64,000 nucleotides of DNA from Candidatus Multivoradales bacterium (lineage in GTDB: Bacteria; Acidobacteriota; Thermoanaerobaculia; Multivoradales; JAHEKO01). The notes below the pieces were generated by a model, which saw only the letters and a list, made by a program, of their open reading frames with translations, had not been told where the DNA came from and searched no databases. Location of the stretch: NCBI GenBank assembly GCA_965223855.1, contig CBDCXM010000009.1, positions 336,142 to 400,141 of the forward strand. The letters are read 5' to 3'. Position 1 is the stretch's first letter, and each line of letters opens with the position of its first letter. Both the position numbers and the translations under genes were made by a program. Below, in pieces: positions 16,549 through 64,000 of the stretch.

Positions 16549-19500
16549 ATGAGCCTGCTCAAACTCTCCGTCAGCCGCCCCGTCACCACCGCGATGGTGC
16601 TGGTGAGCATCCTCGTGCTCGGGGGTATCGCCGCCGCGCGCCTGCCGCTCGCCTACCTGCCGGAGATCGACGTGCCGTTCATCGGCATCCAGATCCCCTA
16701 CCCCAACTCGAATCCGCAGCAGATCGAGAAGGAGATCGTGCGGCCGGTCGAGGAGCTGCTGGCAACGCTGCCGGGAGTCAACTCGCTCAACGCCAACGCC
16801 ACCGCCGATCAGGCGGAGTTCTTCCTCGAGTTCGACTGGGGCAACTCGATCGACATCGTCCGCATGCAGGTGGGCGAGAAGATGGACCAGATCAAGCCCG
16901 AGCTGCCGGCCGGCATCGGCGAGGTCTTCATCTTCTCGTTCAACACGAGCGACATCCCGGTGGTCGAAGGGCGCATCTCAGCCCCCGGGGTCGATCTCTC
17001 CTCGAGCTACGAGCTGATCGAGGCGCGGGTGCTCAACCGCCTGCGCCGCATCCCCGGCGTCGGCCGGGTCGACCTCGACGGCGTGCTGCCGCGCGAGATC
17101 TTCATCGACCTCGTACTCGACGAGATCGCCGCCCACAACGTCGACGTCAGCGCGCTGATCGGCAAGCTCCAGGGGGCGACCTCGAACCTCGTCCTCGGTC
17201 AGGTGGCGGACGATCAGATGAGCTTCACCGCCCGCGCCGTGGGTGACTTCGAGTCGGTCGAGGAGATCCAGACCCTCGCCATCGACCAGCGCGGGCTGAC
17301 CCTCGGCGACATTGCCGAGATCTCCTACGAGCAGCCGCCGATCGGCCACGGCCGGCATCTCGACGGCTCCTACGCCGTCGCCCTGATGGTGTTCAAGGAG
17401 TCGACCGCCAACACCGTCGACGTCGCCAACGAGGTGTTGCGGGTGCTCGACGAGGACATCGGCGCCGATCCGCTCCTCCAGGGGATCAACGTCTTCATGT
17501 GGGACAACCAGGCGGACGCGATCACCAACGGCGTGCAGGGGCTCCTGATGGCGGGCATCATCGGCGGCCTGCTGGCGGTGCTGTGCCTCTACTTCTTCCT
17601 GCGGCGGCTCGATTCGACGCTGATCGTCTCGCTGTCGATCCCGTTCTCGATCATCGCCGCGTGCGGCATCCTCTACTTCCTCGGCGGATCGCTGAACATC
17701 CTGTCGATGATGGGGTTGATGCTCGCGGTCGGCATGCTGGTCGACAACGGCGTCGTGGTGCTCGAATCGATCGACCGCCACCACCGGACGGAGAAGAACC
17801 GCAAGAAGTCGGCGCTCCAGGGCGCCCGCGAGGTCGTCGTGGCGGTCGGCAGCTCGACCCTCACCACCGTGATCGTCTTCCTGCCGCTGATCCTCGGCGG
17901 CAAGACCGACCTCGCCGTCTGGCTCAAGGAGATCGGGGTCGCGATCACCATCGCCCTCGGCTGCTCGCTCTTCACCGCGATGACGCTGATCCCGCTGATG
18001 TCGGCACACTTCCTCGGCCGCAAGAGGTCGAAGCCGATCCGGGCGATGTCGAAGCTCGAGGATCGCTACGCGGCCATCCTCGGATGGACCCTCACCCGGC
18101 CGTGGAAGACGGCGGGCCTGATGATCCTCTTCGCGGTGCTGGGTGTGGTGCCGATGATGACCGGCATGGTCGACGCGGCGATGTTCTCCGGCACGCTCAA
18201 CGAGCGGATCTACTTCAGCTACGAGTTCTCGGAATTCGCCTACAAGTCGCAGGCCGAAGACGCGGTCGACGTGGTCGAGAAGGCGATCGAGCCCCACAAG
18301 GTGCGGCTCGGCATCGATTCGGTCTACAGCTACTACACCTCGAACGAGGCGGGCACGACGCTGACGCTGGCGCAGAAGAACCTCTCGGACGACGAGGTCA
18401 AGGAGCTGCGCAAGCAGGTGCGCGAGGTGCTTCCGGAGATGGCGGGCGTCAAGTTGCGCTTCGACGAGGAGTCGGACTCCGGCGGCAACTCGACCTACTT
18501 CGCCGTCAAGTTCTTCGGTCAGGACACCGACGTGCTGCTCGATCTGGCGACCGAGGCGGCGCGGCGCATCGACACCGTCGAGGGGGTCGAGGACGTCCGC
18601 ACCCCGTTCAAGGAGGCGCAGCGCGAGATCCAGGTGTCGATCGACCGCGAGAAGGCTACCCGCCAGGGGCTGACCGCCCAGGACATGGCGAACATCTTCT
18701 CCTTCACCCTCGGCTCGATGCGGCTGCCGCGCTTCGACGCCGGAGATCGCGAGGTCGACACCTGGCTGGCGCTGCGCATCGAGGACCGCGAGAACCTCGA
18801 GGATCTCAAGAAGATCCAGATCGGCGGTAGCGACGACCGGCCGGTGCGGCTGGGCGACGTCGCGAACTTCCAGTTCGTCAGCCGCCCGCGCGAGATCCAG
18901 CGCGAGAACCGCAAGGTGCGGATGGCGGTGCGCGCCACCTACGAGGGCGAGGACTGGGAGAGCACCCAGAAGGAGATCGAGGGGCTGATGAACGCCTTCG
19001 AGCTCCCCGCAGGCTATTCCTGGAGCTGGAACGACCGCATCATCGAGCAGGGGCAGCAGAACGCCCAGATGGGGGTCAACATGCTGCTGGCGCTGCTGCT
19101 GGTCTACATCGTCATGGCATCGCTCTTCGAATCGCTCGCCCAGCCGTTCGCGATCCTCTTCTCGATCCTCTTCGCCCTCCCCGGAGTCTTCTGGGCGCTG
19201 GCGCTCACCGGCACCTCGTTCAACCTGATGGCGCAGATCGGCATCCTCATCCTGATGGGGATCGTCGTGAACAACGGCATCGTGCTGCTCGACCACGTGA
19301 AGAGGCTGCGCGACAGCGGCCTCACCCAGCACGACGCCTTCCTCCGCGCCGGCCGCGAGCGGCTGCGGCCGATCCTCATGACCGCCTCGACCACCGTCAT
19401 CGGCCTGCTGCCGCTGGCGGTGCGCGGCCCCAACGCCGGCGGCGTCTTCTACTACCCGCTGGCGCGCACCGTGATGGGGGGGCTCATCTCCTCCGTCATC

Positions 19501-19641
19501 CTGACCCTCATCATCCTCCCCTTCTGGAGCGTCTTCATCGAGAAGGGCGTCGCCTGGCTGCGCAACATCTGGCGCCTGTCGGGCGCGCGCAAGAGCGACG
19601 GCGAGGCGGGGGTGCCGGTGGCGGCCGAGACGACGAGCTGA
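16549..19641 (+). CDS. RND efflux transporter permease, second tandem paralogue
   Basis: ATG 16549 (MSLLKLSVSRPVTTAMVLV), 29 nt after the first permease stop. AcrB-like throughout. Confidence 0.85.
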   Translation: MSLLKLSVSRPVTTAMVLVSILVLGGIAAARLPLAYLPEIDVPFIGIQIPYPNSNPQQIEKEIVRPVEELLATLPGVNSLNANATADQAEFFLEFDWGNSIDIVRMQVGEKMDQIKPELPAGIGEVFIFSFNTSDIPVVEGRISAPGVDLSSSYELIEARVLNRLRRIPGVGRVDLDGVLPREIFIDLVLDEIAAHNVDVSALIGKLQGATSNLVLGQVADDQMSFTARAVGDFESVEEIQTLAIDQRGLTLGDIAEISYEQPPIGHGRHLDGSYAVALMVFKESTANTVDVANEVLRVLDEDIGADPLLQGINVFMWDNQADAITNGVQGLLMAGIIGGLLAVLCLYFFLRRLDSTLIVSLSIPFSIIAACGILYFLGGSLNILSMMGLMLAVGMLVDNGVVVLESIDRHHRTEKNRKKSALQGAREVVVAVGSSTLTTVIVFLPLILGGKTDLAVWLKEIGVAITIALGCSLFTAMTLIPLMSAHFLGRKRSKPIRAMSKLEDRYAAILGWTLTRPWKTAGLMILFAVLGVVPMMTGMVDAAMFSGTLNERIYFSYEFSEFAYKSQAEDAVDVVEKAIEPHKVRLGIDSVYSYYTSNEAGTTLTLAQKNLSDDEVKELRKQVREVLPEMAGVKLRFDEESDSGGNSTYFAVKFFGQDTDVLLDLATEAARRIDTVEGVEDVRTPFKEAQREIQVSIDREKATRQGLTAQDMANIFSFTLGSMRLPRFDAGDREVDTWLALRIEDRENLEDLKKIQIGGSDDRPVRLGDVANFQFVSRPREIQRENRKVRMAVRATYEGEDWESTQKEIEGLMNAFELPAGYSWSWNDRIIEQGQQNAQMGVNMLLALLLVYIVMASLFESLAQPFAILFSILFALPGVFWALALTGTSFNLMAQIGILILMGIVVNNGIVLLDHVKRLRDSGLTQHDAFLRAGRERLRPILMTASTTVIGLLPLAVRGPNAGGVFYYPLARTVMGGLISSVILTLIILPFWSVFIEKGVAWLRNIWRLSGARKSDGEAGVPVAAETTS

Positions 19642-19825
19642 AGTCGCTAACCCGGACTTCTCACCAGGTTTCTGCTCCAGGTCCGTGACTTGTTGGAGAT
19701 ACGAGGCTCTTCGTCCTGAGCAGCGCAGGCGTAGCCGTAGCTACATCGAGGAGCGCAGGGACGGAGAAACGCAGTAGATCCAGCAAGATACGGGCCTGGA
19801 GTAGGGAGCTGGTGAGAGGTCCGGG

Positions 19826-21151
19826 CTAGGGGACGGTCACCGACCAGGCCGAGGTGTCGCCTGACTCGAAGCCGTCTTCGAAGATCGGCGGGAGTCTGAA
19901 CACCCAGGCGATGCCGTGGGGCTCGAACTGGATGTTGTTGGAGTTGCCGACGAGGAGCCGGGAACCGCTGAATGAGAGGGCCTCACCGAATGTGTCGAGG
20001 ATCTGGCCGACCGGCGCTCGGAAAGTACCTACCTCTACCCATTCACCGTCGATGTAGCGGTTGTCGTAGACGATCCCCTGCCTGATCTGAGCGCCGTTGT
20101 CGCTCTCGCCGCCTACGAGGGCGATGTTGCCCCTCAGGGCCACGGCAGTGCCGTAGTAGTTGCCGTTGTTGGCGGCGTCCGACGCCAGGAGCTGTTGTTC
20201 TTCGCTCCAAACACCTCCTGAGCGACGGAAGACGTAGGCGGCACCGGGGCCGGGACCGCTTGGCGAAGGGTGCTGTTGCGCGCCAGCGAGCAGCGCATCT
20301 GGCTCCAGGGAGACAGAGAAACCCAGCATGGTGGCAAGAGTCCCGTCAGAAGCGCCCAGCTTCTGCTGAAACTGCCAGTTGGAGCCGTCGAAGGTGTAGA
20401 CGAAGACCGCACCGGAGTTGAGACCTCCGGTGGTGTCGTTGCTGAAGTCGCCCACGACGAGGTCGTCCCCTCGCAGATCTACGGCCCAGCCGAAGCTGTG
20501 GCTACTGGACGGAGCCGAGTCGGTCAACTTCTGCCTCTCGATCCACTGATGGCCTATTCGCTCGAAGTAGTAGACAGCTCCAGGGGTGGCCGTGTCGGCC
20601 CCGGCCCGCATGGCTCCCACAGCCAGCCGGTCTCCCTCTAGTGCAAGAGCCCTCGCGAAGTGGTCCTGTTCGTCGCTGTCTGACCCTCGAATCTTGTCGA
20701 CCTCGATCCAGTTGTCACCTACGCCGCGAATGAAGTAGTAGAAACTCCCCTGGTTCAATTCGTCGTCGTCGAACGGTGCCCCGACGATGGCTACGCTCCC
20801 ATCGATGGCGACCGCAACTCCGAAACCGTCGCCCTCAGCGCCATCGGAAGCTGTAAGCATCGCGTCCTCAACCCAGGTTTCACCTTCGCGCTTGAAGATC
20901 CATGCGGCGCCCTGCTCTTCCTGTCCGCCGATGTCAGCTCCGTTGGCGCCGACGATGGCGTAGTCGCCATCGATATCGACTGCCGAACCGAACCTCCAGC
21001 CGCTCTGTTGCATGACACCTTGCAGCTGAGCCTCGGCCTCCCATTGGCCGCCGGAACCTTCGGAGGCTGCGGCCAGGCCTACAACGTTCGCGACCGGCAG
21101 GAGCAGTAGCGTGAGCGCCCGTCGCTTGGCTCTAGGGGCAAACGGTTCCAT
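19826..21151 (-). CDS. FG-GAP repeat (integrin-alpha-like beta-propeller) secreted protein
   Basis: Signal peptide. Repeated FG/GAP-like blocks (GDYAIVGA, AAWIF, GAVYYF). Lies in a region of lower GC. Confidence 0.55.
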   Translation of the reverse strand: MEPFAPRAKRRALTLLLLPVANVVGLAAASEGSGGQWEAEAQLQGVMQQSGWRFGSAVDIDGDYAIVGANGADIGGQEEQGAAWIFKREGETWVEDAMLTASDGAEGDGFGVAVAIDGSVAIVGAPFDDDELNQGSFYYFIRGVGDNWIEVDKIRGSDSDEQDHFARALALEGDRLAVGAMRAGADTATPGAVYYFERIGHQWIERQKLTDSAPSSSHSFGWAVDLRGDDLVVGDFSNDTTGGLNSGAVFVYTFDGSNWQFQQKLGASDGTLATMLGFSVSLEPDALLAGAQQHPSPSGPGPGAAYVFRRSGGVWSEEQQLLASDAANNGNYYGTAVALRGNIALVGGESDNGAQIRQGIVYDNRYIDGEWVEVGTFRAPVGQILDTFGEALSFSGSRLLVGNSNNIQFEPHGIAWVFRLPPIFEDGFESGDTSAWSVTVP

Positions 21152-22280
21152 CGTCGATGGTCAAGCGTACATCCCATCGGGTGAAGCGAGCCCGAATGTT
21201 GCCTTGGGAACTTGGCCAGTTCGTGAGCCTGAGGGTCCATGGGCCGTCCGCTACCGTGCCTACGAAGACATTGTCTAGCAGCACCAATGGCGTCAGCTCG
21301 TCCTGGTCGTAGGCAACTTGGAGCTCGTCAGCCGGCTCGAAGTCTTTCAGGAGAATCGACTGACCCTGAGGTCCTGTCAGGGCAACGGAGAATCTCGTAT
21401 CCGCCGGCACACTGAAGCCGCGAAGCAAATAGACATCAGCGTCTGAAACCGTGCCGCCGATCGGATCTGATGCGAACGTCAGTGTCGCCTCGGCCCACTC
21501 TCCGGGCTCGAGCACGCCCTCGTTCATCGAGGATGTCTCGATCTGCCTCAGATGGTCGAACTTCACGTTCTGTGTCCGCCTGAACGTAGGGAATCCTGAG
21601 TCGTCCGAGGCCACCTCGATCTGCGCCGTCCTCACGATGGGGCAGTCCTCGGTGTCGTCGAAGGTCATCGCGATATCGACCGGAGGCTCGGGCGCATCGA
21701 CCGGGGGCAGCGTGTGCGTTGAAGGCGAGGTCGCCGGGACGTTGTCGAAGAGAATCCATCCCGCACCGCCAGCCGAGAGGGTGACGTCCTGCGGCACGAT
21801 CCATCGGTTTCTCGGGTCGTAGGTGATCTGCGTTCCGGTGGGAAGGCCAAGGCCACCGTCTCCAGTCAGGTCTTTCGGTACAGAAAGTGTGAAGCCCTCT
21901 GTACCGACGAACACCCGATGGAGGATCGGTTCCCGAGTCTCGTAGGTGTAGTCAAAAAAAGCCAACGTTTCTTCGAAGACACCCGGACCCAGGCTGATGT
22001 TGTTGTTGGGCGCCACCTCGAGACTCACCTCCTGCCCCTCCCCTAGTGTGCCCGAAGTGGGCCCGCTCACCACATCGAAGAAGCTCGTGATCGGCTGGGG
22101 GTGAGACTTGACTTCCCATGGGAGCGGTGTGCCATCCGGAGTCCCGTCGAACGGCACGGCAACGTCGAAGGTCAGACCCGGGAAGTCGCTGGCGTCAGTA
22201 GGAGGGCCGTAGAACTCTGCTACGGGTCCGCTGAAGCTCTGATTCACCTGAATCCCGAGCGCAGGGATCGTTGTGTTCAT
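21132..22280 (-). CDS. hypothetical protein, possible proprotein-convertase P-domain-like C-terminus
   Basis: 382 aa with no obvious signal peptide. C-terminal GPWTLRLTNWPSSQGNIRARFTRWDVRLT resembles the P-domain consensus. 20-nt overlap with the downstream FG-GAP gene. Low GC. Confidence 0.4.
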   Translation of the reverse strand: MNTTIPALGIQVNQSFSGPVAEFYGPPTDASDFPGLTFDVAVPFDGTPDGTPLPWEVKSHPQPITSFFDVVSGPTSGTLGEGQEVSLEVAPNNNISLGPGVFEETLAFFDYTYETREPILHRVFVGTEGFTLSVPKDLTGDGGLGLPTGTQITYDPRNRWIVPQDVTLSAGGAGWILFDNVPATSPSTHTLPPVDAPEPPVDIAMTFDDTEDCPIVRTAQIEVASDDSGFPTFRRTQNVKFDHLRQIETSSMNEGVLEPGEWAEATLTFASDPIGGTVSDADVYLLRGFSVPADTRFSVALTGPQGQSILLKDFEPADELQVAYDQDELTPLVLLDNVFVGTVADGPWTLRLTNWPSSQGNIRARFTRWDVRLTIDDGTVCP

Positions 22281-22324
22281 GCTCGACCCGAGGGGTCCCC
22301 ATCCGACGCCCAGGGCACCGTCAA

Positions 22325-56769: not shown

Positions 56770-58980
56770 GTGCCAGCACGAATCAGGACGCTCTTTCTCT
56801 TCGCTACGGCGCTCGCGGTCGCCTCGACCACCGTCGCCGGTGACTGGACCCACTGGCGGGGACCGACCCGCAACGGCGTCTCCCCGGAGACCGGCTTGCT
56901 GGAAGCCTGGTCGGCCGAGGGGGAGAACCTGCTGTGGAGGGTCGAGGACTTCATCGGCCGCTCGACGCCGGTGGTGTTCGGCAACCGGGTGTGCGCCAAC
57001 GGGCGCGCCGGCGAGGGCGCCGAGCGGCAGGAGATGGTCGCCTGCTTCGATGCCGAGACCGGCGAGCGGCTTTGGGAGCGACGGTTCAACGTCTTCCACA
57101 CCTCGGTGCCGTGGACCCGTGTCGGCTGGGCCAACATCACGGCGGATGCGGAGACCGGCTATCTCTACGTCCAGGGGGTGGGCGGCCTCTTCCACTGCCT
57201 CGACAGTGCCGACGGCAGCATCGTCTGGTCGCGCAACCTGATCGAGGACTTCGGCTTCATGGAGGGCTACGGCGGGCGCACCCAGACGCCGGTCGTCGAC
57301 GAAGACAGGGTCATCGTGACCTTCGCCAACACCAGCTGGGGCGACGAAGGCAGGCCGCTCCACCGCCTGCGCGCCTTCGACAAGCGGACCGGGGAGCAGC
57401 TCTGGGTCGCTTCGCCCGCCAACTCGATGGCCGACAAGAACAGTCAGTCGACGCCGGCGATCGCCGTCATCGGCGGGCGGAGGCTGGTGATCCAGGGCAA
57501 CGGCGGCGGCTGGATCTACGCCGTAGAGGCTCGGACCGGCCGCGAGGTGTGGGGTTTCCACCTCAGCCAGCGCGGCATCAACACCTCGGTGCTGGTGGAA
57601 GGCACGACGGTCTATGCCATGCACAGCGAGGAGAACGTCGACGAGGGGACGATGGGCCGAGTGGTGGCGATCGACGCCACCGGTTCGGGCGACGTCACAG
57701 CGACCCACGAGCTGTGGCGCTCCGACATCGGCGCCGGCTTCACATCGCCCGCTCTCGCTGACGGCAAGCTGTTCGTCGTCGACAATTCCGCCAACCTCTA
57801 CGCCCTCGACCCGGAGACGGGAGAGGAGCTGTGGGAGCTCAACGTCGGTCGTGTCGGCAAAGGCTCGCCCGTGTGGGCGGACGGCAAGATCTACCTCACC
57901 GAGGTCAACGGCCGCTTCGCCATCGTCGATGCGAGCGGCGAGGAAGGGACTCTTCTCGACCTCGAGCAGCTGCGCGTCGGGCGCCGCCGGCCGGAGATCT
58001 ACGGCTCACCGGCGATCGCCAACGGGCGGATCTACTTCACCACCGACGCCGGGCTCTACGCACTCGGACAGGGCGACCCGAGCCCGGCGGCGACGGTAGA
58101 GCTCGACCTCGAGGAGCCGTCGATCCCCTCCGACACCGCCGCCGCCACGATTCGCGTCGTCCCGGGCGACCTCCAACTCGCCTTCGGCGAGACGGCCAGC
58201 TTCCGGGTGGATGCCTTCGACGAGCTCGGCCGTCGGCTCGGCTCGCGCCAGGCGGAACTCGCGGTGGAGGGCATCGAAGGCTCGATCGACGGTGACACGC
58301 TCACGGCAGGTTCACTGCCGGGCACCGGATCTGTCGTCGCCACCTTCGACGACATGACGGCGAAGGCCCGGATCCGCGTGGTCCCCTCGATCCCGTTCTC
58401 GGAGGACTTCGAGGGTACCGAGACCGGCTCCCGCCCCGGTTACATGCTCGGCTACCTCGCCCGCTTCGCCGTCGCCGAGCACGACGGCAGCAAGGTGCTC
58501 GCCAAGGGGCCGTCGCCGGTCAAGATCCACCGCCACATCACCTTCCTCGGCGCGCCGTGGCATGACAACTACACCGTCGAGGCGGACCTCAAGGCCGACG
58601 CCGAGAACCCCGAGAATCCCGATCTCGGGCTCATCAACGGCGGCTACACCATGGAGCTCCTCTCGATCGGCGCCCGTCCGGGTGCCCCTCCGGGGCCGAA
58701 GCTCCAGGTGCGCTCGTGGCAGGCGGGGCTGCGCATCGCCACCGATATCGAGTTCGACTGGACACCCGGTACCTGGTACCGGATGAAACTCCGTGTCGAT
58801 CAGCAGGAAGACTCGGCGCTCATCCGCGGCAAGGTGTGGCCGCGTGGCGAGGACGAGCCGGCCGACTGGTCGATCGAGGTCACCGACGCACTGCCGATTC
58901 TCTCCGGCGCCGCCGGGATCTCCGCCTACTCCCCCTCTTTCGTCTACTTCGACAACTTTCAGGTGAGTGAGAACGAATGA
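56770..58980 (+). CDS. PQQ-like beta-propeller secreted protein with C-terminal Ig-like and DUF1080/LamG-like domains, paralogue 3
   Basis: GTG start with AAGGAG Shine-Dalgarno. Signal peptide then GDWTHWRGP. The C-terminal 220 aa end in VYFDNFQV, typical of DUF1080 concanavalin-like domains. Confidence 0.6.
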   Translation: MPARIRTLFLFATALAVASTTVAGDWTHWRGPTRNGVSPETGLLEAWSAEGENLLWRVEDFIGRSTPVVFGNRVCANGRAGEGAERQEMVACFDAETGERLWERRFNVFHTSVPWTRVGWANITADAETGYLYVQGVGGLFHCLDSADGSIVWSRNLIEDFGFMEGYGGRTQTPVVDEDRVIVTFANTSWGDEGRPLHRLRAFDKRTGEQLWVASPANSMADKNSQSTPAIAVIGGRRLVIQGNGGGWIYAVEARTGREVWGFHLSQRGINTSVLVEGTTVYAMHSEENVDEGTMGRVVAIDATGSGDVTATHELWRSDIGAGFTSPALADGKLFVVDNSANLYALDPETGEELWELNVGRVGKGSPVWADGKIYLTEVNGRFAIVDASGEEGTLLDLEQLRVGRRRPEIYGSPAIANGRIYFTTDAGLYALGQGDPSPAATVELDLEEPSIPSDTAAATIRVVPGDLQLAFGETASFRVDAFDELGRRLGSRQAELAVEGIEGSIDGDTLTAGSLPGTGSVVATFDDMTAKARIRVVPSIPFSEDFEGTETGSRPGYMLGYLARFAVAEHDGSKVLAKGPSPVKIHRHITFLGAPWHDNYTVEADLKADAENPENPDLGLINGGYTMELLSIGARPGAPPGPKLQVRSWQAGLRIATDIEFDWTPGTWYRMKLRVDQQEDSALIRGKVWPRGEDEPADWSIEVTDALPILSGAAGISAYSPSFVYFDNFQVSENE

Positions 58981-60452
58981 ACCGCAACAGCCTCTTCGTC
59001 GTCGCCGCTCTCGCGGCTCTGATCGCTCTTCCCGCCATCGCCCAGGACGCGGCGATGTTCGGCAACGGCCCGCAGCGCAACATGACTTCGGATGCCACCG
59101 ACCTTCCCACCGAGTGGGACCTGGGGAGCGGCAAGAACGTGCTGTGGAAGCAGCAGCTCGGTTCGCAGTCCTACGGCGGTCCGGTGCTCTTCGACGACCG
59201 CATCTACGTCGGCACCAACAACGAAGCCGAGCGCAACCCGGCGATCACCGGCGACCGCGGGAACGTGATGGCGTTCAACGCCACCACCGGTGAGTTCCTG
59301 TGGCAGGCGGCTCACGCCAAGCTGACCTCGGGCCGGGTGCATGACTGGCCGCTCCAGGGGGTCTGCGCGGCGCCCTACGTCGAGGGCGACCGCCTCTGGT
59401 ACGTGTCGAACCGTGCGGAGATCATCGCCGCCGACGTCGACGGCTTCCGCGACGGTGAGAACGACGGACCGTACACCTCGGAGGAGCACAGCTCCGAGAT
59501 CGACGAGGATGTGATCTGGAAGGTCGACATGATCGGCGATCTCGACGTCTTCCCGCACAACCTGGCCGTCGGCAGCCCGCTGGCTGTCGGCGACAAGCTG
59601 TTCATCGTCACCGGCAACGGCGTCGACGAGGGACACATCAACATCCCTTCGCCCGACGCGCCGAGCTTCCTCGCCGTCGACAAGAACACCGGCGAAGTGC
59701 TGTGGACCTCGGACGCACCGGGGCCGAGCATCCTCCACGGCCAGTGGTCGAACCCGGCCTACGGAGTGATCGGCGGTACGCCTCAGGTGGTCTTCCCCGG
59801 CGGTGACGGCTGGCTCTATTCGTTCCACCCCGACTCCGGCGAGCTGCTGTGGAAGTTCGACTGCAACCCCAAGGACTCGATCTGGGAGCTCGGCGGCATG
59901 GGGACGCGCAACGCGATCATCTCGACGCCGGTGATCCACAACGACCGCGTCTACCTCGGCGTCGGCCAGGATCCCGAGCACGGCGAAGGGGTCGGCAACT
60001 TCTGGGTGATCGACGCGACGAAGCGCGGTGAGCTCGGTGCGGACGCGGTCGTGTGGCATCGCGGCGGGGAAGAGTTCGGCCGCACGATCTCGACGGCGGC
60101 GATCCACGACGGCATCGTCTACATCGCCGACCTCTCCGGCTTCCTCTACGCCCTCGATGCCGACACCGGCGAGCACTACTGGACCTACGACGCCTTCGCG
60201 GCGGTGTGGGGCTCGGCGTTCGTCGCCGACGGCAAGGTCTACCTCGGTGACGAGGACGGCGACATCGTGGTGCTCGAGGCCGGCAAGGAGATGAACCTGA
60301 TCGCCGAGACCAACCTCGGATCGGCGGTCTACACGACGCCGGTGGCGCGCGACGGCACGCTCTACATCGCCAGCCGCAACATGCTCTTCGCCTTCCAGGA
60401 GGGGGCGATGCTCGAGGCCGCCGAGGGCGGCGAAACAGCAGCGGCGCCGTGA
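58977..60452 (+). CDS. PQQ-like beta-propeller repeat secreted protein, paralogue 4
   Basis: ATGA overlap with paralogue 3. Signal peptide. Propeller blades (GDRLWYVS, DKLFIVTGNG, DGIVYIADLSGFLYALD). Confidence 0.6.
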   Translation: MNRNSLFVVAALAALIALPAIAQDAAMFGNGPQRNMTSDATDLPTEWDLGSGKNVLWKQQLGSQSYGGPVLFDDRIYVGTNNEAERNPAITGDRGNVMAFNATTGEFLWQAAHAKLTSGRVHDWPLQGVCAAPYVEGDRLWYVSNRAEIIAADVDGFRDGENDGPYTSEEHSSEIDEDVIWKVDMIGDLDVFPHNLAVGSPLAVGDKLFIVTGNGVDEGHINIPSPDAPSFLAVDKNTGEVLWTSDAPGPSILHGQWSNPAYGVIGGTPQVVFPGGDGWLYSFHPDSGELLWKFDCNPKDSIWELGGMGTRNAIISTPVIHNDRVYLGVGQDPEHGEGVGNFWVIDATKRGELGADAVVWHRGGEEFGRTISTAAIHDGIVYIADLSGFLYALDADTGEHYWTYDAFAAVWGSAFVADGKVYLGDEDGDIVVLEAGKEMNLIAETNLGSAVYTTPVARDGTLYIASRNMLFAFQEGAMLEAAEGGETAAAP

Positions 60453-61525
60453 GCGATCTCGCCTCCAGGGTCGAGGCTGCTCGGGAGCAGCTCGACGCTC
60501 ACGTGCGCGACACGGTCGCCTGGCACTTCGACCCGGAGACCGGCTGCCCGTTCTGGCTCGACTTCGCCTCGAAGCTCGACTTCGATCCGCGCGAACGGAT
60601 CCACGGCTACAAGGATCTCGCGGTCCTGGGACACTTCGAGGACGAGTGGCTCCGCGGCGGCCCGATCCGCCGCTGGGTGCCGAAGGGGCTGGCCGACAAG
60701 CCGCTCTACGTCTTCGAAACCGGCGGCTCCACCGGGCTGCCGAAGTCGCGCGTCAACATCGAGGACTTCCAGACCGACTACGAGCTCTTCAGCGACACCC
60801 TTTCCGACGAGACCTTCCCGAAGGGCGCCGACTGGTTGATGCTCGGCCCCACCGGGCCGCGTCGGCTGCGCCTCGCGATCGAGCACCTCGCTCAGCACCG
60901 CGGCGGCGTCGCCTTTCACGTCGACCTCGACCCGCGCTGGGTCAACAAGCTGATCAAGGCGGGCAAGCACCAGGAGATGCAGCTCTACAAGGAGCACGTC
61001 ATCGACCAGGGCTTGAAGATCCTGCGCGCCCACGACTCGGTCGAGTGCCTCTTCACGACGCCGAAGCTCCTCGAGGCGCTGTGCGAGAAGATCTCGCTCA
61101 CCAAGGCGGGCATCAAGGGGATCTTCTGCGGCGGCACCGAGATGAACGCCCAGTTCCACCGCTTCGCCCGCGAGGAGCTGGTGCCGGGGATCGACTTCCA
61201 GCCGACCTACGGCAACACGTTGATGGGCCTCGCCTGCAACAAGCCGTTCGAGCTCACCGAGAACTACGAGATCACCTACTACGCCCCGGCGCCACGTGCG
61301 ATCTTCGACATCGTCAACCCCGACGACCCGACCGAGACCGTCGGTTACGGCGAGACGGGGCGCGTCATGCTGACGACGCTCACGAAGGAGTTCTTCATGC
61401 CGCGCTTCCTCGAGCGCGACGAGGGCGAGCGGGCGGAGCCGACCGACCGGTTCCCGTGGGACGGGGTGACGAACCTGAGGCTCTTCCAGCGGTTGGAGAG
61501 TTCGGTGGTGGTGGGGGTGTACTAG
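60449..61525 (+). CDS. ANL-superfamily adenylate-forming enzyme (PaaK / F390-synthetase-like)
   Basis: GTGA overlap with propeller paralogue 4. P-loop-like ETGGSTGLPKS near the N-terminus. 358 aa, shorter than canonical PaaK. Confidence 0.45.
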   Translation: MSDLASRVEAAREQLDAHVRDTVAWHFDPETGCPFWLDFASKLDFDPRERIHGYKDLAVLGHFEDEWLRGGPIRRWVPKGLADKPLYVFETGGSTGLPKSRVNIEDFQTDYELFSDTLSDETFPKGADWLMLGPTGPRRLRLAIEHLAQHRGGVAFHVDLDPRWVNKLIKAGKHQEMQLYKEHVIDQGLKILRAHDSVECLFTTPKLLEALCEKISLTKAGIKGIFCGGTEMNAQFHRFAREELVPGIDFQPTYGNTLMGLACNKPFELTENYEITYYAPAPRAIFDIVNPDDPTETVGYGETGRVMLTTLTKEFFMPRFLERDEGERAEPTDRFPWDGVTNLRLFQRLESSVVVGVY

Positions 61526-61550
61526 GAGTTGAAAGTCCCCAGGGCGCCGG

Positions 61551-61614
61551 AAACTACTAGAAATCTGTAGTTTTCCGTCAAGCCGGCATAACGTAACTAC
61601 AGTTTTACTGTAGT
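61551..61614. promoter_or_regulatory. two inverted repeats sharing ACTAC/GTAGT half-sites upstream of abiEi (putative operator)
   Basis: IR1 is AAACTAC-n9-GTAGTTT (61551-61573). IR2 is ACTACAGT-ttt-ACTGTAGT (about 61596-61614). Both sit in an AT-rich stretch directly before GTG 61623. Confidence 0.45.
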
Positions 61615-61622
61615 ATGGCGTA

Positions 61623-62210
61623 GTGGCACAACAGCGGATCGACCGGCGGAGGACCCTCGCCAACCTCGCTGGTCAACAGAAGGGCTACTTCCTGGCATCC
61701 CAGGCCGTCGATGCCGGCTACAGCTATCAGGCCCAGAAGTACCACACGGATCGAGGCAACTGGATTCGAATTGATCGAGGCCTATACCGGCTTCGAGACT
61801 GGCCTGTCGGCCCATACGACGATCTGGTCCGCTGGTCACTGTGGAGCCGAGGCCGCGCTGTCATCTCGCACGAGACGGCACTCGACGTCCACGATCTCGG
61901 TGACGTCAACCCCAGTCGCATCCACCTGACCGTCCCCTCGACCTTCCACGCCAGGTCGGCTCAGGTGCACCTCCATCGCGCAGACCTCGACCCGTCCGAC
62001 ATCAGCGAACACGACGGATATCGAGTCACCACGCCCCTCAGGACCCTGCTCGATGCGGCTGTCAGCGATCTCGACCAGGACTACCTCACAGGCGCCGTCG
62101 ACGATGCCCGTTCCCGCGACCCGACCATCGCTCCCAGGCTTCTCCGGATCGCAGATGCGTTCGGGCCTCGCGCTGCCCTCCGTATCGAGAGAGCCCTCGC
62201 CGAACTGTGA
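61623..62210 (+). CDS. abiEi: type IV toxin-antitoxin AbiEi-family antitoxin / transcriptional regulator
   Basis: N-terminal winged HTH plus the characteristic C-terminal domain (sequence resemblance to AbiEi_4-type proteins). GTGA-coupled to the downstream nucleotidyltransferase. Confidence 0.65.
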   Translation: MAQQRIDRRRTLANLAGQQKGYFLASQAVDAGYSYQAQKYHTDRGNWIRIDRGLYRLRDWPVGPYDDLVRWSLWSRGRAVISHETALDVHDLGDVNPSRIHLTVPSTFHARSAQVHLHRADLDPSDISEHDGYRVTTPLRTLLDAAVSDLDQDYLTGAVDDARSRDPTIAPRLLRIADAFGPRAALRIERALAEL

Positions 62211-63073
62211 CCGCCTACGCCACTGCCGCCGCTCTCCGCCAGGCGATCGAAGAGCGTCTTCGCCATCGGTCCGAGACCACGGGAGAGAGTCTCGATCGTC
62301 TGCGACGCAGGCTCGTCTTTGAACGCCTGCTGGTTCGACTCCAGGAGTCTCAGCCTGGGAGCTGGATCCTGAAAGGAGGGATGGCGCTCGAACTTCGGCT
62401 TGGAGATCGAGCCCGAGCCACCAAGGATCTCGACCTGGCGCTACGAGAGAGCGAACCGACGGAAGAACTCGTGCTCACGAAGCTGGCGCAAGCAATCCAG
62501 ATCGAAGTCGATCAAGACCGATTCGAGTTCGAGATTCGCGGCATCCGGAGCATGGCGCCCCATGTCTCTCCCGACACTGTCTGGCGAGTCAACCTTCTCG
62601 CGAAGCTGGCAGGGCGGGAGTTCGGCTCGATCCGCGCCGACATCGTTACGCGAACCGACGAGATCGCGTCAACCGAGACTTTTCTGCCTACGCCCACCCT
62701 GGACATCCCCGAGTTGCAGACTCGCGAAGTGGAGATCGTCGATCCGAAACAGCACTTTGCAGAGAAGCTCCACGCGGTCACTCGTTCCTTCGCCAACCGA
62801 CCCAACACGCGCTCTCGAGACCTGGTCGATCTGGTTCTGTTGATCGAGAACGGCCTACGCGCCGATCAACGGCTCGCCAAGACACTCGCGCACGTCTTCG
62901 ACCACCGCGGCACTCACTCTCTGGAGGGCCCTTTGCCCGAACTCCCGGAGAGCTGGCGCCCGGAGTTCGACAGAGCCGTTCGAGACTTGCAACTCGGACC
63001 CAAGAGCCTCGATGAGGCCGTCGAACTCGTCGAGACCTTCCTGAGTCGGACTTTCTCCAACCCCGAAGGGTGA
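62207..63073 (+). CDS. abiEii: type IV toxin-antitoxin AbiEii-family nucleotidyltransferase toxin (DUF1814)
   Basis: DUF1814-like sequence (ILKGGMALELRLGDRARATKDLDLAL carrying the NTase Gx10DxD-type motif). Paired with AbiEi. Confidence 0.65.
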   Translation: MTAYATAAALRQAIEERLRHRSETTGESLDRLRRRLVFERLLVRLQESQPGSWILKGGMALELRLGDRARATKDLDLALRESEPTEELVLTKLAQAIQIEVDQDRFEFEIRGIRSMAPHVSPDTVWRVNLLAKLAGREFGSIRADIVTRTDEIASTETFLPTPTLDIPELQTREVEIVDPKQHFAEKLHAVTRSFANRPNTRSRDLVDLVLLIENGLRADQRLAKTLAHVFDHRGTHSLEGPLPELPESWRPEFDRAVRDLQLGPKSLDEAVELVETFLSRTFSNPEG

Positions 63074-63103
63074 GTCCGGCCGGCAAGGCTCGACTCGCCC
63101 GAG

Positions 63104-64000
63104 CTACACCGGATAGACCTTCAGTACCTCGTCCCCGTAGTGGTTGATCACCTTGACGGCGATCTTCCCTGACTCGGGCTTGTCGAACGGGCGACTCTCG
63201 GTCCGGTAGAGGGTCGACCAGGCGTCCTCGTCGATCTCCGCCTTGAGCGCCTTCTTGAGCTTCTCGTAGGGCTTGTCGGCGCCGGTGAAGTAGGCATGAC
63301 GGACGAAGAAGCTCTCGCCGTTGTAGTCGGTATCGAGGAACCAACAGGCGATCTCGTCGGTGGTGCTGGAGCGGATCTCGCCAGTGGTCGGGTCGTAGAC
63401 GTCGAGACCGTGGATCTCGACCTGCATGCGGCCGCCCTCGACTTCGCGCAGCTCGATGTCCGGCTCGCCGAACACCATGAAGAGATTGCCGGCGCCGGTC
63501 TTCTTGAGGAGTTCCTCGCCCATCGAGAGATCGGGGTTCATCCGCACCAGCAGCACCGGCAGCTTGCCGTACTGCTTCGAGGCTTCGGCGATGAAACCTC
63601 GTTCCGCAGTCGCTCCTTCGGGTGAGATCGCCTTCGCCTTCTCGCTCGCGTGGGCATCGAAGGCGAAGCCGAGTACCAGCAGCAGGTCGAAGCCGACCCC
63701 CGCCACCGCCTCCTTGGCCGCCCCTTCGATCTGATCCTTGCCGACCGTACCGTGCTCGGGGCCGATCGCGATCGCCACGCGCTTTCTCTTGCCGTCGGCG
63801 TCCTCGTACTCGCCCGCCGCCTGCACCCAGGCGCCGGCGAACGGCTCGACGAAGTCGAACTCGAGCCGCTCCTCGCGGCGGGTGTTCTGGACCCCGGCCT
63901 TCCGCAGATTGTCGAGGATCATCGACTCGAACCCCTCGCCGCCGCGCTCGGCGGCCGCCGCCCGGCGTTCCTCGCCCTCCCCCGCCGGGCGTTCGGCCGA
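63104..64000 (-). CDS. hypothetical protein, C-terminal part (frame stays open to the window end)
   Basis: Minus-strand ORF ends at 63104. The same frame has no stop up to position 64000, so the N-terminus lies outside the window. No confident domain call. Confidence 0.4.
   Translation of the reverse strand, partial: SAERPAGEGEERRAAAAERGGEGFESMILDNLRKAGVQNTRREERLEFDFVEPFAGAWVQAAGEYEDADGKRKRVAIAIGPEHGTVGKDQIEGAAKEAVAGVGFDLLLVLGFAFDAHASEKAKAISPEGATAERGFIAEASKQYGKLPVLLVRMNPDLSMGEELLKKTGAGNLFMVFGEPDIELREVEGGRMQVEIHGLDVYDPTTGEIRSSTTDEIACWFLDTDYNGESFFVRHAYFTGADKPYEKLKKALKAEIDEDAWSTLYRTESRPFDKPESGKIAVKVINHYGDEVLKVYPV

Follow-up and report, generated by a model that had tools for sequence, protein, structure and literature searches.

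We analyzed the end of a 64,000-nucleotide stretch of genomic DNA from Candidatus Multivoradales bacterium (contig CBDCXM010000009.1; referred to here, at its full length, as the window, whose numbering is used throughout). A leader at this end precedes the two genes of an AbiE-type toxin-antitoxin (TA) cassette, abiEi and abiEii, and a convergent gene on the minus strand follows them (Table 1). An earlier note, made from the sequence alone, had proposed a GTGA-coupled abiEi-abiEii pair behind an AT-rich leader of about 90 bp. The pair was recovered as proposed, its two open reading frames (ORFs) sharing a 4-nt overlap, GTGA, and a 4-nt overlap was also found in 54 of the 68 relatives with an adjacent AbiEii. 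The leader was indeed AT rich (GC content of 0.464, falling to 0.364 in the repeat-bearing span, versus 0.680 for the window), although it was longer than stated. Within it lie two 23-nt palindromes, inverted repeats 1 and 2 (IR1 and IR2), and a -10-like hexamer.

Table 1. Features of the abiE locus and its downstream neighbor, in window coordinates
Feature	Position	Strand	Description
abiE leader (predicted promoter and operator region)	61526..61622	+	97 nt; GC 0.464; from the end of the AMP-binding-like gene on its 5' side (stop at 61525) to the abiEi GTG
Putative operator palindrome IR1 (distal), AAACTACTAGAAATCTGTAGTTT	61551..61573		23 nt; 7-nt arms AAACTAC/GTAGTTT
Putative operator palindrome IR2 (proximal), TAACTACAGTTTTACTGTAGTAT	61594..61616		23 nt; perfect 8-nt arms
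-10-like hexamer TAGTAT	61611..61616	+	6 nt 5' of the GTG start, in the right arm of IR2
abiEi, antitoxin and autorepressor (predicted)	61623..62210	+	195 aa; GTG start
abiEii, DUF1814 nucleotidyltransferase toxin (predicted)	62207..63073	+	288 aa; GTG start
Last 298 codons of a gene for a type III-like Mod DNA methyltransferase (by homology)	63104..64000	-	Convergent with abiE; open at 64000

The product of the first gene was recognized by Pfam as AbiEi_4 (PF13338; 2.4e-7; residues 11 to 57; 31.2 bits versus a cutoff of 25) and by the PADLOC AbiEi model (4.3e-68). More than 2,000 homologues of about 200 residues were found, the nearest non-identical ones being 60 to 66% identical; their N termini were consistent with the GTG start of abiEi, and those on plasmids are annotated by NCBI as AbiEi-family antitoxins. 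Sequence searches of the PDB yielded nothing useful with the single AbiEi sequence and no match with the AbiEi family profile. We also built an AlphaFold model on the homologue alignment (predicted local distance difference test [pLDDT] of 78, high in the C-terminal domain). Used as a query in a fold search, this model returned as its top PDB matches 6Y8Q, the AbiEi of Streptococcus agalactiae (E value of 4e-7; probability of 1.00; full length), and then 1ZEL (Rv2827c). The Pfam, PADLOC, and fold matches bear out the description of the first gene as an AbiEi antitoxin with a winged helix-turn-helix. By sequence and modeled fold, then, AbiEi is an antitoxin that combines an N-terminal winged helix-turn-helix with a C-terminal antitoxicity domain.

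AbiEii was likewise recognized by Pfam (AbiEii, PF08843; 3.7e-31) and PADLOC (AbiEii; 3.2e-74). Its single sequence gave merely a weak AbiGII match in the PDB, and a profile of 25 family members matched Mycobacterium tuberculosis MenT3 (Rv1045) over its full length at 3.6e-27. The second gene was therefore correctly called an AbiEii, that is, a DUF1814 nucleotidyltransferase (NTase). In the alignment of the 25 members, residues G57, G58, R70, T72, D74, D76, K187, D205, and D208 were invariant. The NTase motif hG[GS]x15DhD reads K56-G57-G58-x15-D74-L75-D76 in AbiEii, with K187 in motif III and D208 in motif IV; these motifs, including the residues of III and IV, were defined by mutagenesis in S. 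agalactiae AbiEii (PMC3985639). The spacing of R70, T72, D74, and D76 is that of R63, T65, D67, and D69 in the S. agalactiae toxin. Aligned with MenT3, D74 corresponds to D80, K187 to K189, D208 to D211, and T72 to S78, and the first three of these MenT3 residues are essential (PMC7450476). T72 occupies the Ser/Thr phospho-acceptor position of type VII-style neutralization, two residues before the first catalytic Asp, and also corresponds to T65 of S. agalactiae AbiEii. The earlier note had singled out the NTase catalytic residues as decisive, and all of them are kept. Judged by these residues, AbiEii is an intact DUF1814 NTase and a predicted toxin with MenT3-like activity.

We next consider the palindromes of the leader, which the earlier note had described as inverted repeats built from ACTAC/GTAGT half-sites. 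IR1 matched the element AAACTA-N11-TAGTTT at 12 of 12 positions, with its first base at -72 from the start codon. IR2 matched at 10 of 12, with its first base at -29, as in 11 relatives of the same class, and has perfect arms (ACTACAGT/ACTGTAGT) at 61596-61603 and 61607-61614. The two elements start 43 nt apart and are separated by 20 nt. When up to two mismatches were allowed, IR1 and IR2 were the sole matches in 64 kb (0.03 expected; two matches in 0 of 100 shuffles). The pentamers ACTAC/GTAGT occurred in 5 copies within 72 nt (61553-61624), compared to 88 copies in the whole 64 kb on both strands. The fifth of these half-sites, GTAGT at 61620-61624, overlaps the abiEi GTG, lies outside both palindromes, and has no counterpart in relatives; it may be there by chance.

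For comparison, 80 homologous loci, mostly from Actinomycetota, were fetched by AbiEi similarity (52 to 65% identity), giving 81 loci with the window, and the 150 nt 5' of each abiEi start were extracted. With at least 10 of the 12 defined bases of AAACTA-N11-TAGTTT required to match, there were 59 sites in 11,178 upstream positions and 6 in 1.37 Mb of other locus sequence, an enrichment of ~1200-fold. Each locus was then scored for its best two sites 41 to 44 nt apart, with 4,000 random 155-nt segments as the null. Of the 81 loci, 75 had a best-pair score above the null's 99th percentile and 55 had one above its maximum; among the 75, 67 had a spacing of 42 to 43 nt. The window itself scored 22/24 at a spacing of 43. 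Relative to the abiEi start codon, the proximal site begins at about -29, as in the window and the class closest to it, or at about -40 to -48. Alignment of the -29 class showed AACTA and TAG to be invariant in the proximal element. The inner arm positions differ among loci with self-complementarity kept (AAACTAAAG...CTTTAGTTT, AAACTATAT...GTATAGTTT, and AAACTACAG...CTGTAGT). The conserved half-site core is AACTA/TAGTT, and the fifth base of ACTAC is variable. Two palindromes are thus present as described, but ACTAC/GTAGT is the version at this locus and not the family core. The earlier note had staked its reading on conservation of the repeats in homologous loci; 75 of the 81 loci retain them, with length, core sequence, spacing, and position all conserved. 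In this comparison, the paired arrangement is one that travels with abiEi across relatives, and the two palindromes are a conserved operator-type feature, putatively serving AbiEi self-repression.

Of the 81 loci, 54 had a TANNNT hexamer exactly 6 nt 5' of the start codon and 62 had one 5 to 9 nt 5' of it, compared to a background of 0.6%. Few loci (15 of 81) had a Shine-Dalgarno-like sequence. The abiEi start codon was GTG in 44 and TTG in 6. The window conforms to this arrangement: the TAGTAT hexamer is followed by GGCGTA and then GTG. Given the spacing of TANNNT and the scarcity of Shine-Dalgarno-like sequences, the abiE mRNA in this AbiEi clade is probably leaderless and transcribed from a -10-only promoter. 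Leaderless mRNAs are common in Actinomycetota. A canonical -35/-10 promoter for abiE was also considered and was dropped in favor of the -10-only one, on the grounds of these spacing statistics.

We also asked whether the repeats could act in RNA rather than as an operator, either as the terminator or an RNA structure of the upstream AMP-binding-like gene or as a structured 5' leader. The 100-nt leader does fold into two hairpins (-30 kcal/mol; z = -2.3 versus shuffles), IR1 lies 25 nt past the upstream stop codon, and a short T run follows it. However, a terminator scan of the leader was negative, the stems are A/T rich, and IR2 lacks a T tract. Conservation extends to the primary sequence AACTA/TAGTT, beyond what mere pairing would require. 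In addition, the distance of the repeats from the abiEi start and their mutual spacing of 42 to 43 nt stay the same whether the upstream gene is hsdR, as in most relatives, or AMP-binding-like, as in the window. This speaks against a terminator belonging to that gene. From a leaderless mRNA, if that is what is made, the repeats would be absent altogether. In view of the negative terminator scan and the conservation of sequence, position, and spacing, we rejected this explanation, to which we assign almost no probability.

Base composition sets the cassette apart from its surroundings. Over its 1.55 kb, the abiE cassette had a GC content of 0.618, which returned to 0.68 to 0.73 inside the minus-strand gene. 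The GC content at third codon positions (GC3) was 0.74 for abiEi and 0.71 for abiEii, compared to 0.89 to 0.95 in the three upstream genes and 0.896 in the downstream mod fragment. The earlier note had placed the pair at the edge of a low-GC region; GC content is low in the cassette, but no extended low-GC stretch follows. The cassette is compositionally foreign and very likely horizontally acquired. Since the GC3 of the pair was below that of all neighbors tested and that of mod was host-like, the abiE cassette alone looks recently acquired, and its acquisition was probably recent. No tRNA gene was found within the 64-kb window.

Might such an import be a nonfunctional relic, with a dead toxin and a regulator left orphaned, that moved without the partners it has in most relatives? 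The hsdR/hsdM/hsdS genes that accompany the pair in 55 of 80 relatives are absent here, and neither protein has a known exact copy outside the source genome, each forming a single-member cluster. Against this, both ORFs are full length by family comparison, all invariant catalytic residues are kept, the putative operator scores 22/24, and the spacing of the -10 hexamer is canonical; furthermore, about 25 of the 80 relatives also lie outside type I restriction-modification (R-M) operons. We therefore consider decay of the cassette highly improbable. The pair appears to be an intact further member of the known AbiE/MenAT family, already so named by annotation pipelines in relatives.

In those 55 relatives, the abiE pair is embedded in a type I R-M operon that runs hsdR, two-palindrome leader, abiEi, abiEii, hsdM, and hsdS, all on one strand (for example, L009:7388-14182). 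Relative to the abiEii stop, the hsdM start fell between -23 and +6 nt in 47 of 50 cases, and this closeness suggests that hsdM and hsdS in the type I R-M loci are probably transcribed from the AbiEi-controlled promoter. We searched the 64-kb window for remnants of hsdR, hsdM, and hsdS and found none; here the cassette stands alone. A literature search with incomplete coverage returned no description of AbiE within type I R-M operons or of a leaderless abiE promoter, which is not proof of novelty. Across the loci, the antitoxin was better conserved than the toxin (52 to 65% and 34 to 50% identity to the window for AbiEi and AbiEii, respectively), a difference that is partly one of ascertainment, since the loci were picked by AbiEi similarity. 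In 11 loci, no AbiEii homologue was detectable beside abiEi.

One tentative extension, which we hold to be rather unlikely, is that in this actinobacterial-type AbiE clade the AbiEi-controlled leaderless promoter also drives hsdM and hsdS, such that AbiEi would serve as the R-M controller, with the tRNA-targeting toxin coupled to the R-M system as its back-up or addiction arm. The window would then hold the same cassette captured free-standing beside a type III-like R-M system. If true, this would describe a modular TA control and back-up unit moving between R-M types.

The neighbor in question is the minus-strand ORF, which ends at 63104 and is still open at position 64000, so that the earlier note was right in describing an opposite-strand gene that runs off the window. 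Its suggestion, offered as speculation, that this gene recalls the C terminus of a DNA methyltransferase was also upheld. The C-terminal 278 residues matched PADLOC MTase_III at 1.3e-75 (profile positions 709 to 981 of 983), and thousands of homologues that are 65 to 75% identical are named adenine-specific or site-specific DNA methyltransferases, many with PF01555. By homology, the visible codons belong to the C terminus of a type III-like Mod enzyme. Type III R-M systems pair such a methyltransferase, which has an N6/N4 MTase domain, with a Res helicase-nuclease, and in two related loci (L081 and L082) mod is preceded by a ResIII gene. Because of the Mod match and these ResIII genes, it is very probable that an R-M system extends past the end of the window, where the catalytic domain and any res gene would lie. 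A defence island, the start of which the earlier note had placed here, is plausible: the window shows AbiE and a single mod gene, and anything more of such an island would lie beyond 64000.

In the same two related loci, the Mod homologue was called as two adjoining PF01555 ORFs (L082:4481-11371, 383 + 456 aa; L081:4938-11305, 361 + 434 aa). L082 also carries HicA/HicB and MNT/HepT TA pairs between res and mod, which suggests that TA modules recur beside this Mod-type R-M family. Upstream of the cassette, the window holds ordinary genes. Two successive PQQ-type beta-propeller genes (4-nt overlap) and then a 358-aa AMP-binding-like enzyme, whose Pfam match is under the gathering score, occupy 56770-61525. 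PQQ_2 propeller genes also lie near the Mod homologue in L081, which may come from a related organism. A second low-GC patch at 19500-22300 (GC content of 0.61 to 0.64 in 1-kb steps) carries, both on the minus strand, genes for an FG-GAP-repeat protein (19826-21151) and a proprotein-convertase P-domain protein (21132-22280). Neither defence nor mobility genes were recognized in this patch, which is unrelated to defence.

Returning to the cassette, we think it very likely that the window carries a self-contained, horizontally acquired AbiE-type (MenAT3-like) TA cassette that works as follows. RNA polymerase would start at or next to the abiEi GTG from the -10-only TAGTAT, producing a leaderless bicistronic mRNA. 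AbiEi would bind IR1 and IR2 through its N-terminal winged helix-turn-helix, and repressor bound to IR2 would block access to the -10 element. There is experimental precedent for autoregulation through 23-bp repeats that overlap the promoter (PMC7319586). The AbiEi C-terminal domain would neutralize AbiEii, most likely by inducing auto-phosphorylation of T72. Both MenT3 and S. agalactiae AbiEii add pyrimidines to tRNA 3'-CCA ends and block translation (PMC7450476; bioRxiv 10.64898/2026.01.19.700257). MenT3, MenT1, and AbiEii are neutralized by antitoxin-induced auto-phosphorylation of a Ser/Thr aligned with T72 (bioRxiv 10.64898/2026.01.19.700257). In sequence, the pair in the window has all the features needed for this scheme of tRNA modification and phosphorylation. 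The biological role would be abortive-infection defence, which limits phage propagation at the expense of the infected cell, and/or stabilization of the adjoining R-M locus.

The same parts could also serve chiefly as an addiction or stabilization module, or as a stress-responsive chromosomal TA system like MenAT3, keeping the R-M locus or island in place and providing no abortive-infection defence. Stabilization of mobile elements, plasmids among them, is a known property of AbiE systems (PMC3985639), the cassette is foreign in composition, and MenT3, the closest solved toxin, has been studied as a growth-control toxin. The S. agalactiae system gave no phage protection in Escherichia coli, and 55 of 80 relatives carry the pair within a type I R-M operon, a placement that is expected if the module travels with R-M genes and stabilizes them. 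However, such co-location is equally expected of defence islands, and Lactococcus lactis AbiE and the RlegTA/SanaTA relatives do confer phage resistance. Such a role is a possibility to be taken seriously, though not the probable one; moreover, stabilization and defence are not mutually exclusive.

Several points weigh against the scheme of autorepression, phosphorylation, and defence proposed above. The N-terminal domain of the AbiEi model, which would carry the DNA-binding function, is of low confidence (pLDDT of 45 to 65). A strict sigma-70 (E. coli-type) promoter scan of the leader gave no site, and no -35 element is evident; the leaderless prediction comes from spacing statistics alone, in loci that are mostly from Actinomycetota, and may not hold for this host. 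MenT4 is not phosphorylated by its own antitoxin, so this mode of neutralization is not universal. In E. coli, S. agalactiae AbiE did not protect against any of 32 coliphages, and a defence role is thus not guaranteed. Rv1044 (MenA3) did not bind its own upstream region (PMC7319586). Operator architecture also differs from that of the characterized systems. The 23-bp repeats of S. agalactiae are inverted copies of each other, lie 3 bp apart, and cover the -35 and -10 elements (PMC7319586), whereas in the window each 23-nt element is itself palindromic, the two are 20 nt apart, the second alone overlaps the -10 hexamer, and the transcript is predicted to be leaderless. Rv2827c of the Rv2827c-Rv2826c (MenA4-MenT4) pair is ~100 aa longer than AbiEi and has four repeats with gaps of 13 and 4 bp, which it binds with negative cooperativity (PMC7319586). 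Given these differences, stoichiometry and cooperativity cannot be transferred to the window.

For the genome, the result is the gain of an intact, probably recently acquired TA or abortive-infection cassette next to an R-M gene, with position 61526 marking the boundary between metabolic and defence genes. For the AbiEi clade, with its more than 2,000 homologues, the analysis provides a precise, testable candidate operator, AAACTA-N11-TAGTTT occurring twice, 42 to 43 nt apart, and tied to a predicted leaderless -10-only promoter. What the comparison adds is this operator consensus and spacing, the prediction of a leaderless promoter, and the frequent embedding of the clade in type I R-M operons. 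Existing knowledge of how AbiE works is unchanged by these findings.

Among known systems, M. tuberculosis MenA3-MenT3 (Rv1044-Rv1045; COG5340 antitoxin and DUF1814/COG2253 toxin) is the best solved-structure match of the toxin profile and shares the antitoxin-first order, at a sequence identity of only ~25 to 30%. MenA3, the closest characterized relative, has no identifiable operator: no inverted repeats were found upstream of rv1044, in contrast to the strongly conserved palindrome pair of the window clade (PMC7319586). Rv2827c-Rv2826c supplied the second-best antitoxin fold and is autoregulated via several 23-bp repeats upstream of the start codon (PMC7319586). The reference system for AbiE, S. 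agalactiae AbiEi-AbiEii (type IV, with a recent proposal to class it as type VII), is likewise bicistronic, and its 23-nt repeat elements overlap the promoter (PMC7319586). Its antitoxin is also 195 aa long with the same two-domain fold, at ~14% identity to the AbiEi of the window, and its toxin shares the hG[GS]x15DhD motif and the R-x-T-x-D-x-D spacing. The location of the pair has a parallel in toxin genes associated with R-M systems, such as PrrC, an anticodon nuclease encoded inside the EcoprrI hsd locus, an accessory toxin or Abi gene tied to restriction-modification. Cassette and mod converge in the window and do not share an operon, and the association with R-M is positional. The likeness to the PrrC type lies in the placement of the abiE pair between hsdR and hsdM in 55 of 80 relatives and, in the window, directly beside a type III-like mod.

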